Source of the DNA: a virus
Virus record (IMG/VR): IMGVR_UViG_3300027887_000463
Coordinates: 9,371-73,370 of that record
DNA: 64,000 nucleotides
Strand: one strand, 5' to 3'
Below, one piece after another: positions 39,965 to 42,042 of the stretch (position 1 is the first letter of the stretch; each line of letters opens with the position of its first letter). Below the pieces are notes generated by a model. It was not told where the DNA came from. It saw nothing but the letters and a program-made list of their open reading frames with translations, and made no database searches. Both the position numbers and the translations under genes were made by a program.

Positions 39965-40066
39965 TTACGTCTCTAGATATTTTTCTACCTTATCATAGAG
40001 TACAGCGCCCAGAATTACCGCAAATGTAACGATTGCGAATATGAATTCCTTCTTCTGGATAAGCAT
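39965..40066 (-). CDS. candidate 33-aa single-pass membrane peptide, below the track cutoff
   Basis: Product MLIQKKEFIFAIVTFAVILGAVLYDKVEKYLET. Its ATG lies 20 nt downstream of the retron accessory gene stop. No clear SD. Confidence 0.3.
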   Translation of the reverse strand: MLIQKKEFIFAIVTFAVILGAVLYDKVEKYLET

Positions 40067-40086
40067 GATCGGTGTATTGTTTGGAT

Positions 40087-40479
40087 CTACGAAGTATGAC
40101 AGTACAAGATATAGAACCTGTTTGCTTCGTCAATCAGTAAATTTATAGCTTCATCTATATCTCGTGGGTCCACGAGTAACCGAGATATTACAACGTTCTC
40201 TTTTTGTTTCAATCTGTAGTTGAATCCCGGTGTCTTTGTCATTGATAAATGAATGTTCAGTGGTTTGGTTATTTCTTGCTGTAATTCTCTTGTAAACGTA
40301 TATGTACCCCCAGATATCGAATACGACCAGCATACTTTCATCGGATGATTAAGGCGGTCACTTGTATTGGACCAGCGCTTTACGTGAGCCAGTGGCATCT
40401 GTGAGGAGGTGTAGAATCCTATTTCGGGAACGTCAAATTCTAGTCGTGTAAGTTTGTGCTGTTGAAACAGCTCGTCCAT
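40087..40479 (-). CDS. retron accessory/effector candidate (130 aa, unknown fold)
   Basis: The ATG at 40479 shares one base with the RT stop (TAATG), which implies translational coupling. I recognise no ATPase, nuclease, TIR or TM motif. The track's longer 154-aa version starts inside the RT gene. Confidence 0.55.
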   Translation of the reverse strand: MDELFQQHKLTRLEFDVPEIGFYTSSQMPLAHVKRWSNTSDRLNHPMKVCWSYSISGGTYTFTRELQQEITKPLNIHLSMTKTPGFNYRLKQKENVVISRLLVDPRDIDEAINLLIDEANRFYILYCHTS

Positions 40480-41363
40480 TATACGACATTTACTTTCAAG
40501 AGTTGTTGGAGTAACTGATCGCCCCGTGTTTGATTGAGTGACTTGATCCATTCTATTTGACCTCTGAGTTGCTGGAATTCCAGCGTGGTTATCGTCTTCC
40601 CATCACGCTTCAAATTATGAAGTTGGGCTCGCAAATTTCTCCACGATTCTTTTCTAATACTTGTCTTGGTATTTACGATGACTCCGGTAATCTGCTGTCT
40701 CTGATAATGCTTTCGGATTTTTGTTTTCTTTTTATTTGGACGCAATCCGTAGGCATATACATGAGAAAATACCGATGTCTTAAGTTTCAAGGTATCTGGA
40801 AGATCTCCAGATATTGCTATATCATCCGCATAACGTGTAATTGTCACGTTGTTAGCTTTTGCCAAATCAGAGAGTTTTTTGTCCAATCCCAGACAAACTA
40901 GATTAGATATAATTGGTGACGTTGGAGCTCCCTGTGGCAATTCGTGTTCATAACACATCAACTGTGAAAGTAACTCTAGATCAGCTTCGACATATGAAAA
41001 TACTTTCTGTTGAGATGCCAGCCATATCATCGTGCGTTTGACTGTATCTTCTTTTATAGAGTTAAAAAAATCTTTGATGTCGAGAGTTACTATAAACTTC
41101 TTACCTACATGTTTCTGAGCATTTGTTCTTGGACTTTTACCGTGTACAAACCCGTGCGCGATTGGATGCGCTCTAAAATGGTATAGTAGGTTATCTACTA
41201 TAGCACGTTGAATTGATTTGAGTGGCTCCTGAGGAGCATCTATTCTTCGAGTTTTGCCATTTCTTTTTTTAATTCGATAGGTAATATAGTATCTAGCTAA
41301 ATCTTGTGCTATGATCTCTAATGTACCCTTATCGTATCCTAAGACTGTGTATATATCTTGCAT
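40479..41363 (-). CDS. retron-type reverse transcriptase
   Basis: 294 aa carrying RT motifs 1-7: RIKKRNGKTRRIDAP, LDIKDFFNSI, LPQGAPTSPIISNL, RYADDIAISG and GLRPNKKKTKI. It also has the retron-typical NAxxH (NAQKH) and the VTG-like QRQQITGVIVN. Confidence 0.85.
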   Translation of the reverse strand: MQDIYTVLGYDKGTLEIIAQDLARYYITYRIKKRNGKTRRIDAPQEPLKSIQRAIVDNLLYHFRAHPIAHGFVHGKSPRTNAQKHVGKKFIVTLDIKDFFNSIKEDTVKRTMIWLASQQKVFSYVEADLELLSQLMCYEHELPQGAPTSPIISNLVCLGLDKKLSDLAKANNVTITRYADDIAISGDLPDTLKLKTSVFSHVYAYGLRPNKKKTKIRKHYQRQQITGVIVNTKTSIRKESWRNLRAQLHNLKRDGKTITTLEFQQLRGQIEWIKSLNQTRGDQLLQQLLKVNVV

Positions 41364-41374
41364 ATTAAATGTAA

Positions 41375-41699
41375 GCCCCGTTCCCTATGCTTAATGGAAT
41401 GAAAATCGACGGGAACTCTCCCGGCGATTTTGAGCTGTGGAAGATGCGAATCCGTAATTTTCCGCCAAATTTTTGGTAAGGGGTCCGTCGAAATATTAGT
41501 TCATATCGACGGGCCACGTCCTAAAGTTTCGCTGAAATTTCCGGACGAGGTAGCGACGAATTCCACAGCGCCAACTATGCTTCACCAATCGAGGTGTAAG
41601 TCAGCTACTGGAGCGAAACGCTCTAGATTACCGCTCTGCACTACCCCACCCCCATTGCTGGGGGCAGGGCAATGACTGGCGATCCATAGGAAACGGAGC
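41375..41699 (-). ncRNA. retron msr-msd non-coding RNA (candidate)
   Basis: A 15-nt inverted repeat, a2 (41685-41699) and a1 (41375-41389), pairs on the - strand RNA with 13 Watson-Crick and 2 G-U pairs. A G follows a2 directly at 41684. Internal hairpins lie at 41643-41670 and ~41482-41516. a1 ends 11 nt upstream of the RT ATG. Confidence 0.6.
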
Positions 41700-41709
41700 C
41701 TAACAATTT

Positions 41710-42042
41710 CTATTGAATAAGTCTACGCAGTTTGCGAGCTATCTCAACCGCATGGACTAGTAGTTCCTCTGCATTGTCCTCATCGACGAGTGCTTCTTGG
41801 TCGATGATGCTGGTACACAATGAATACATCTCTCGTTTATTATCTGGCATTGGAAGAGATGGTTTAAATTTAGCTGTCAACTCTTTTTCTGTATAGAGTT
41901 CAGCTGTTCCATCCGGAAAAGTAACCAGGAAGTCGCCCAAGATTGGGATCTCCCCGCCTATCGGCTTGGACTCCAACTTTGAGAGAACATCACTGGTTAC
42001 TTTCTGGACGAATACCTCTGGATTTATATAACGATACTTCAT
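41710..42042 (-). CDS. hypothetical protein immediately upstream of the retron
   Basis: 110-aa ORF with SD AGGAG 5 nt upstream of the ATG. Its stop lies 10 nt from retron repeat a2, so the two are probably co-transcribed. Confidence 0.55.
   Translation of the reverse strand: MKYRYINPEVFVQKVTSDVLSKLESKPIGGEIPILGDFLVTFPDGTAELYTEKELTAKFKPSLPMPDNKREMYSLCTSIIDQEALVDEDNAEELLVHAVEIARKLRRLIQ

Follow-up and report, generated by a model that had tools for sequence, protein, structure and literature searches.

Retrons are known as patchily distributed defences of bacteria and prophages that kill the infected cell. In this study, a candidate retron was investigated computationally on a 64,000-nucleotide stretch of viral DNA, positions 9,371 to 73,370 of the IMG/VR record IMGVR_UViG_3300027887_000463, which is referred to here as the window and in which a reverse transcriptase (RT) gene is accompanied by an upstream non-coding RNA (ncRNA) and several small genes. 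In canonical retrons (Retron-Eco1/Ec86; PMC7736814), an RT with NAxxH and VTG-type motifs, the features by which Mestre et al. define retron RTs (PMC7736814), is preceded on the same strand by an ncRNA whose inverted repeat arms a1 and a2 enclose msr loops and a long msd stem, with a G after a1 and with accessory genes in the same operon. The locus in the window shares all of these traits, and the Ec86 RT is its best solved relative. It differs in that its accessory proteins fit no known effector family, in that its RNA is about 330 nt long, and in its carrier, a jumbo phage that, to judge by its genes, is one with its own RNA polymerase and in whose clade the locus is fixed and syntenic, not patchy. 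The RT-RNA core is regarded here as that of an ordinary retron, and the locus as a whole is very probably a genuine retron that forms a fixed, vertically inherited module of a clade of uncultivated jumbo phages.

Retrons have been found on phage genomes before. Those of temperate phages and satellites, such as Ec73 on the P4-like phiR73 and those in the P2/P4 hotspots (PMC9122126), are variable hotspot cargo protecting the lysogen (PMC9122126), whereas the window retron is a constant gene of its clade. The nearest precedent is a retron-like RT with an upstream non-coding region in lytic Staphylococcus jumbo phages that have their own RNA polymerases (bioRxiv 10.1101/2020.12.14.422802), for which the authors considered that it might exclude co-infecting phages, have some other function or be a selfish element. 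That RT differs from the present one in its length of 501 aa, in an extra N-terminal domain and in sequence, the two being about 26-28% identical; neither an ncRNA structure nor a partner protein was defined there, and the phage lineage is unrelated.

The 294-aa RT of the window contains the segments TNAQKHVG, RYADDI and YQRQQITGVIVN in its translated open reading frame (ORF). The NAxxH motif of region X, between RT2 and RT3, is present as NAQKH at residues 81-85, and the VTG triplet of region Y, in RT7, as ITG at residues 225-227 within QRQQITGVIVN, for which the family consensus is QRQQVTG. Both motifs, together with a full set of RT motifs, had been claimed in an earlier reading made from the sequence alone, and all were found in place. 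In an alignment of 28 homologues, residues A82, H85, Y178, D180, D181 and G227 are invariant and N81, A179 and T226 are conserved to at least 90%; at the level of sequence, an intact catalytic site is supported. The best 25 PADLOC models are all retron RTs, led by types III-A (3.4e-73) and XIII (5.7e-73) and followed by XII and XI, and the NCBIfam model retron_St85_RT is matched with 236.2 bits at a cut-off of 235. Twelve PDB chains were matched at E <= 1e-10, every one of them a retron RT, with the Ec86 RT as the best (3.6e-34). The grouping of the RT by profile models and PDB matches supports its placement in the retron family.

Because the scores against types III-A, XIII, XII and XI are nearly tied, at 240-245 bits with the PADLOC models, the RT can be assigned to no single retron type. 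Nor do the neighbouring genes point to one: neither the partners of type III-A, a PRTase (phosphoribosyltransferase) and a DNA-binding protein, nor those of type XIII, a winged-helix/SWIM protein and a HEAT-like protein, were found when the 130-, 110- and 69-aa ORFs beside the RT were searched against Pfam, PADLOC and NCBIfam. About 30 homologues share more than 50% identity with the RT, many of them on contigs of 190-215 kb. Among deposited phages, no DNA match was found, and the protein most similar to the RT shares 36% identity with it.

It is most improbable, and already contradicted, that the RT belongs to another retroelement, be it a group II intron, a diversity-generating retroelement (DGR) or an abortive-infection (Abi) type RT, or that it is a decaying remnant. 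The generic RVT_1 domain is the sole point that such a reading can draw on. The group II intron RT model TIGR04416 reaches 75 bits at a cut-off of 300 and Rfam gives no intron RNA in the window, while models of defence-associated RTs (DRT) score lower still, far under their cut-offs; no clustering with group II, DGR or Abi RTs was seen in the model and PDB matches. No direct repeat touches the RT neighbourhood anywhere in the window, all repeats of at least 40 nt lying inside a gene for a 3241-aa protein, which rules out a DGR template/variable pair. The intact catalytic motifs and the conservation throughout the clade speak against decay.

The region upstream of the RT gene (41364-41709) holds no convincing ORF, and its GC content, 0.52 at 41400-41699 against 0.37-0.40 in the flanks, bears out the GC-richer non-coding stretch described from the sequence alone. 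As RNA of the minus strand, the region folds with -144.7 kcal/mol (z = -9.06, compared with z = -5.85 for the plus strand) into a structure of 117 pairs, 12 of them G-U. The 15-nt inverted repeat that had been reported at 41375-41389 and 41685-41699 does pair on the minus-strand RNA through 13 Watson-Crick and 2 G-U pairs, and in a repeat search its arms measure 18 nt each (41372-41389 and 41685-41702). In a constrained search, where a1 had to be followed by a G and a2 had to lie no more than about 90 nt from the RT start, the a1/a2 helix scored 41, whereas 20 shuffles averaged 21 and did not exceed 27. G41684, directly after the 5' arm and proposed as the branching guanosine, is unpaired in the minimum-free-energy (MFE) fold. 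Two further hairpins had been placed at 41643-41670 and at about 41482-41516, and they correspond to hairpins that the repeat search returned at 41639-41674 and 41472-41525.

The structure was compared among the loci of ten relatives with 54-100% RT identity. All ten fold on the RT strand into the same succession of a1, G, the hairpins SL1, SL2 and SL3, a long stem, a small hairpin and a2, with a1/a2 sequences that are themselves quite dissimilar. A global MAFFT alignment of the ten ncRNAs misaligned their 5' ends and was replaced by one anchored on the invariant G and on a conserved AGC preceding a2. In this alignment, 15 of the 16 a1/a2 pairs show changes on both sides, 81% of the cells are paired, a share that drops to 37-56% once the partner is shifted by 1-3 columns, and none of 500 shuffles matches the observed covariation; the repeat is thus kept in relatives by compensation. 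Since the a2 anchor had been picked with pairing in mind, the test was repeated unguided on the four closest sequences with MAFFT and RNAalifold. This alignment recovered a1/a2 with 18 pairs, SL1, SL2 and the small hairpin (SL5), with compensatory changes in 36 of 68 pairs and with the G unpaired and invariant. The 18 G-U cells within a1/a2 would turn into A-C mismatches if the other strand were transcribed and thus favour the RT-sense strand, the argument that the sequence-only reading had built on G-U pairs. MFE z-scores of 300-nt upstream pieces did not separate sense from antisense.

The G directly after a1 is invariant in all ten relatives and occupies the conserved branching-G position at the 3' end of a1, where a role as the branch point is predicted. 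Six of the eight SL2 pairs are compensatory around a conserved G-C-closed triloop in the same ten sequences. When hairpins of this type, defined by a stem of at least 7 bp closing CG-NNN-CG, were counted across the clade loci, 26 were found in 15.6 kb of sense sequence upstream of the RT compared with 83 in 608 kb elsewhere, a 12-fold enrichment. The long stem is conserved at its base and unalignable at its apex, as is usual for msd stems (PMC7736814). An ncRNA encoded on the RT strand, in which a1 and a2 close msr and msd stem-loops, is supported by these comparisons of sequences and predicted folds. The plan extends to more distant members. At 50% RT identity, the upstream RNA of L009 has the same plan (z = -6.4), and in L036, a 205 kb contig with 36% RT identity, the RNA sits about 1.3 kb downstream of the RT in a non-coding gap (L036:6189-6411), where it retains a 15-bp a1, the G, SL1, SL2 and a2 (z = -4.7). 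Its retention after relocation argues that RT and RNA work together.

A different mode of action, in which the RT and its RNA make no constitutive multicopy single-stranded DNA (msDNA), was considered as well and is held to be rather unlikely. Single-stranded DNA could be formed on a trigger, as in type VI retrons, or the RT could be a defence RT that makes some other DNA. There is a reported precedent, since a study on type VI retrons (bioRxiv 10.1101/2025.10.22.683967) describes single-stranded DNA that is made on a trigger alone and derepresses translation of the effector. The unusually long RNA with its extra hairpins would suit such a mode, as would an XRE-type helix-turn-helix (HTH) gene just upstream of the RT in L093, the nearest bacterial relative in a genome scan. 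However, the a1-G...a2 geometry with its invariant G is the canonical priming arrangement, and the DRT models stay far under their cut-offs.

The distribution of the locus was assessed by searching IMG/VR with the VWA protein encoded upstream, instead of the RT, to avoid circularity. In all 22 contigs with a VWA protein at least 37% identical, the RT lies 0-3.3 kb downstream of the VWA gene, whereas it is present in 0 of 57 contigs with VWA identity of 34% or less, within the fetched downstream DNA of up to 5 kb. The order moxR, VWA, RNA, RT, 130-aa gene and, later, glycosyltransferase is held in about 40 non-redundant loci. The RT is roughly matched in divergence by its moxR, VWA and glycosyltransferase neighbours; in L037, for instance, the identities are 37% for moxR, 38% for VWA, 39% for the RT and 46% for the glycosyltransferase. 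A retron that is fixed, syntenic and vertically inherited across the phage clade, and not a sporadic passenger, is supported by these sequence comparisons, and such fixation with synteny weakens the picture of a recently acquired accessory gene. One RT gene of the clade is split by a group I intron (L069:4591-4828; Rfam RF00028, 93.1 bits, E = 1.7e-24), the RT frame resuming after about 350 nt.

In a rough neighbour-joining (NJ) tree of 149 RTs, 31 of 40 bootstrap replicates group the 45 phage-context RTs in a single clade that admits no more than two intruders; strict monophyly is unsupported (5 of 40). Two observations concern the edges of this group. In two of the more distant contigs (L045 with L201 and L066 with L209, paired by their shared contig names; VWA identity 32-37%), a retron-type RT lies 7-9 kb downstream of the VWA gene, and the association of the two genes may reach beyond the clade as defined. 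The RT of a Gemmatimonas phototrophica metagenome-assembled genome (L093:3529-4846), mentioned above for its XRE-type HTH neighbour just upstream, nests with the phage RTs in 34 of 40 NJ replicates and has the C-terminal GxIEW(I/V)(R/K)xLN motif of the clade; its placement may reflect a transfer between phage and bacterium.

Directly after the RT, its start overlapping the RT stop in the sequence TAATG at 40477-40481 as the sequence-only reading had noted, lies a gene for a 130-aa protein. According to that reading, the stretch held a complete retron coupled to an effector of unrecognised kind. The retron core has stood, and so has the linkage of the 130-aa protein: in a local iterated hidden Markov model search it was found right behind the RT in 32 non-redundant loci, with RT identities as low as about 38%, and it is present in 19 of the 22 contigs anchored on VWA. 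Its proposed part as the effector now looks less evident. As that reading had it, no known effector motif is recognisable: no sequence match was found in Pfam, PADLOC, PHROG, NCBIfam or PDB, searches with the family profile against PDB sequences and Pfam gave nothing consistent, and just 32 relatives occur among 1.84 billion representative proteins. The C-terminus carries the motif EANRFYxLYC with an invariant Cys. A first AlphaFold model from 11 sequences (predicted local distance difference test, pLDDT, 63) gave noise alone in Foldseek against PDB and was set aside. The model from a 29-sequence alignment reached pLDDT 93 and a predicted template modelling score (pTM) of 0.86, and its fold resembles class I chaperones of type III secretion and the YbjN family at 6-11% sequence identity; a structure search against BFVD returned nothing. 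The likeness is one of fold and not of membership, as there is no sequence-level match and the genomic context is unrelated. Because a confidently modelled fold is secretion-chaperone-like, the model suggests an adaptor rather than an obvious toxin or self-evident effector.

Two further small genes downstream were overlooked in the sequence-only reading, even though its lower coordinate, 39965, is the stop of one of them, a 33-aa ORF that its text did not mention. In nearly every locus a spacer, mostly of 100-230 nt, separates the 130-aa gene from the next gene, and a small hydrophobic ORF occurs in it in 24 of 33 non-redundant loci compared with 5.4% of 2000 control windows. The predicted membrane peptides are alignable, fall into two subfamilies and were called by gene callers in three relatives. 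A small membrane protein linked to a retron recalls the type IV retron Ec48 (Millman et al. 2020), whose effector reportedly has two transmembrane segments and is possibly membrane-damaging. Here, however, a single-pass helix of 26-50 aa is predicted, without sequence relation to the Ec48 protein, with the 130-aa protein in between, and linked to the retron by co-conservation alone. Next comes a basic 69-aa protein, whose family is found in 32 non-redundant loci, some of them lacking the 130-aa gene; no Pfam, PDB, PHROG or PADLOC match was obtained, and family profile searches gave nothing consistent. Because its gene in the window overlaps, at its end, the beginning of the one that follows, a connection with the retron is uncertain, and the gene possibly belongs to that other operon. 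Upstream, the 110-aa ORF does abut the 5' repeat as described, ending 7 nt before a1, and matches no family in Pfam, PADLOC, PHROG or NCBIfam. Its homologues are confined to close relatives (10 loci; 11 proteins), and for that reason it probably stands outside the retron core. The features of the locus and of its surroundings are listed in the table.

Table. Retron locus and other features of the window (numbering from the first nucleotide of the window).
Feature	Position	Strand	Basis or remark
Retron ncRNA msr-msd, a1 to a2, about 331 nt	41372-41702	-	fold z = -9.06; plan common to 10 relatives
a1, 5' arm of closing inverted repeat	41685-41702	-	repeat search; covariation with a2
Candidate branching guanosine G41684, 2'-OH predicted to prime	41684	-	unpaired, directly 3' of a1; invariant G
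SL1, long G-U-rich hairpin (msr)	41630-41683	-	fold; compensatory changes in 4 closest relatives
SL2, triloop hairpin GCG-NNN-CGC, G-C-closed, putative RT-recognition element	41608-41626	-	compensatory pairs, enrichment
SL3 hairpin (msr)	41570-41605	-	predicted fold
Long imperfect stem-loop, putative msd template	41434-41569	-	inverted repeats and fold
Small hairpin just 5' of a2, putative start of msd template	41402-41431	-	repeats, fold, compensatory changes (4 closest sequences)
a2, 3' arm, 8 nt short of RT start codon	41372-41389	-	repeat search, covariation, RNAalifold
Retron-type RT, 294 aa	40479-41363	-	motifs, family models and PDB match
130-aa partner protein (dn130)	40087-40479	-	start overlaps RT stop (TAATG)
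33-aa single-pass membrane peptide (MLIQKKEFIFAIVTFAVILGAVLYDKVEKYLET)	39965-40066	-	predicted; co-conserved ORF in spacer
orf69, 69-aa basic protein, membership uncertain	39703-39912	-	co-conserved downstream
110-aa ORF	41710-42042	-	ends 7 nt before a1
294-aa Cys-rich ORF	38829-39713	-	downstream of module
HNH endonuclease gene	38391-38780	-	
116-aa ORF	37856-38206	-	lipoprotein-like signal MKYVVLFVLALFVVGC at start
620-nt spacer, VWA gene to 110-aa ORF	42043-42662	-	z = -6.8
3241-aa ORF	17566-27291	+	internal direct repeats
2031-aa protein	46266-52361	+	RNA-polymerase-beta-subunit matches
741-aa Lon-like ATP-dependent protease	53792-56017	-	
722-aa phosphatase/polynucleotide-kinase/RNA-ligase fusion	58055-60223	-	PHROG RNA ligase 2.8e-210

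Several points weigh against the reading of the locus as a retron module of the clade. The RT is about equally close to four PADLOC types and so falls outside each of them, and no partner protein matches a known retron effector in PADLOC, Pfam or profile searches; the genes co-conserved beside the RT are without a recognised effector domain in family, profile and structure searches. Retron RNAs are usually shorter than the roughly 330 nt found here. The Rfam msr model does not match it, permissive scans of the retron region gave no msr-like match, and over the whole window no Rfam family reached its gathering score. In L033, L062, L194 and L195 the VWA gene abuts the RT without an upstream gap and the RNA was not located, and the a1/a2 repeat of the most distant members is so short that an inverted-repeat search does not set it apart from shuffles. 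The membrane peptide and the 69-aa protein may belong to the neighbouring operon. Finally, fixation throughout a clade is unusual for an abortive-infection module.

The surroundings of the locus are those of a large phage. Besides the MoxR ATPase and VWA pair, the window encodes a baseplate wedge protein, a portal, a 2031-aa RNA-polymerase-beta-like protein, a Lon-like protease and a kinase-ligase fusion, and no sign of lysogeny was found in it. None of the deposited phages is a close relative. The VWA protein shares 34.5% identity with its counterpart in Bacillus phage 0305phi8-36, and for the portal the figure is about 32% with the proteins of Vibrio phage D69 and Salmonella phage Arash. The clade consists of uncultivated phages with contigs of up to about 215 kb. 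Several matches to RNA polymerase beta subunits are spread along the 2031-aa protein, which looks like a large fused phage RNA polymerase subunit. Phosphatase/kinase/ligase fusions are the kind of enzyme that repairs cleaved tRNA, and this fusion and the Lon-like protease together suggest heavy investment against host responses. The 3241-aa ORF holds internal direct repeats of ten families (D1-D10; 45-152 nt, 60-78% identical) and probably encodes a repetitive fibre or tail protein.

Close to the module, the downstream Cys-rich ORF, which has no family match, is more conserved than the RT, with 64-75% identity across the clade where the RT has 44-71%. It is followed by an HNH endonuclease gene, and LAGLIDADG-type genes with faint Pfam matches take this place in relatives (L005:5727-6098 and L174:4467-5210), so that homing endonucleases seem to use the stretch between module and glycosyltransferase as a landing site. 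The 116-aa ORF further downstream, with its lipoprotein-like signal, explains a GC-rich patch at about 37800-38250. In one relative, a gene a few kb downstream of the retron encodes an 817-aa protein with Pfam matches to the major-vault-protein shoulder and Vault_3 (L009:7184-8912; L010:4181-5695). On the other side of the module, the 620-nt spacer is GC-rich and folds strongly, and was considered as a conserved second RNA. This was rejected, as both ends alone are conserved (a hairpin right behind the VWA stop, and CCGGACAUCCGG ahead of the next start codon), the middle is absent from relatives, and the equivalent spacers of relatives are not unusually structured (z = -1.7 and -2.0).

If the module operates as retrons do (PMC7736814), the RT would recognise the msr hairpins, probably through the SL2 triloop hairpin, the best candidate because it is the most conserved. 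By analogy with other retrons, the RT would then prime from the 2'-OH of G41684 and copy a template that begins just 5' of a2 and takes in the small hairpin and the long stem, which would yield a branched msDNA of roughly 150-190 nt. More speculatively, the complex of RT and msDNA might bind the chaperone-like 130-aa protein, and the assembly of RT, msDNA and adaptor could restrain an effector for as long as the msDNA is left undisturbed by a competing phage or a host factor. For that effector, again as speculation, the membrane peptide would be the best candidate. A conflict module that serves to exclude competitors, a role that the sequence-only reading had suggested, is, tentatively, regarded as the most likely.

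Almost as likely, and a distinct possibility, is a domesticated retron that, with new small partners, serves the phage's own infection and not conflict or abortive-infection defence. The msDNA could act as a decoy or sponge for host defences that sense DNA or process DNA ends; alternatively, it could take part in replication, gene regulation or the timing of lysis, with the small proteins as cofactors. The fixed position of the module in 22 of 22 clade members fits such a role, as do the divergence in step with neighbouring genes, the invariant catalytic residues of the RT and an RNA that is kept even when relocated. Group I introns in phages typically sit in conserved genes, and the intron in the L069 RT gene points the same way. 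So does the fold of the partner, which is that of a binding protein and not of an enzyme or toxin, and the phage already has counter-defence, for example the polynucleotide kinase-RNA ligase fusion. On the other hand, no such retron is described in the literature searched, and fixation alone does not discriminate, because virulent phages also hold conserved superinfection-exclusion genes. A constant benefit is favoured by the fixation, by an RNA that was relocated and yet not lost, and by the intron in the RT gene, but none of these decides between this role and the exclusion of competitors.

Compared with the literature searched, what is new in this locus is its set of partners, its failure to fit any of the 13 described retron types and the fixed, syntenic presence in a jumbo-phage lineage. 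A full RT and RNA core appears to have been kept in place through a deep clade of large phages that, by their gene content, have their own RNA polymerase, and that it has survived relocation of the RNA or invasion of the RT gene by an intron implies that a lytic virus steadily profits from it. The compact 294-aa RT with its long, well-defined template RNA and many natural variants may be of interest for retron-based DNA production and editing. The locus would be a tractable case for studying how reverse-transcribed DNA acts on the side of the virus in the conflict between phage and host.

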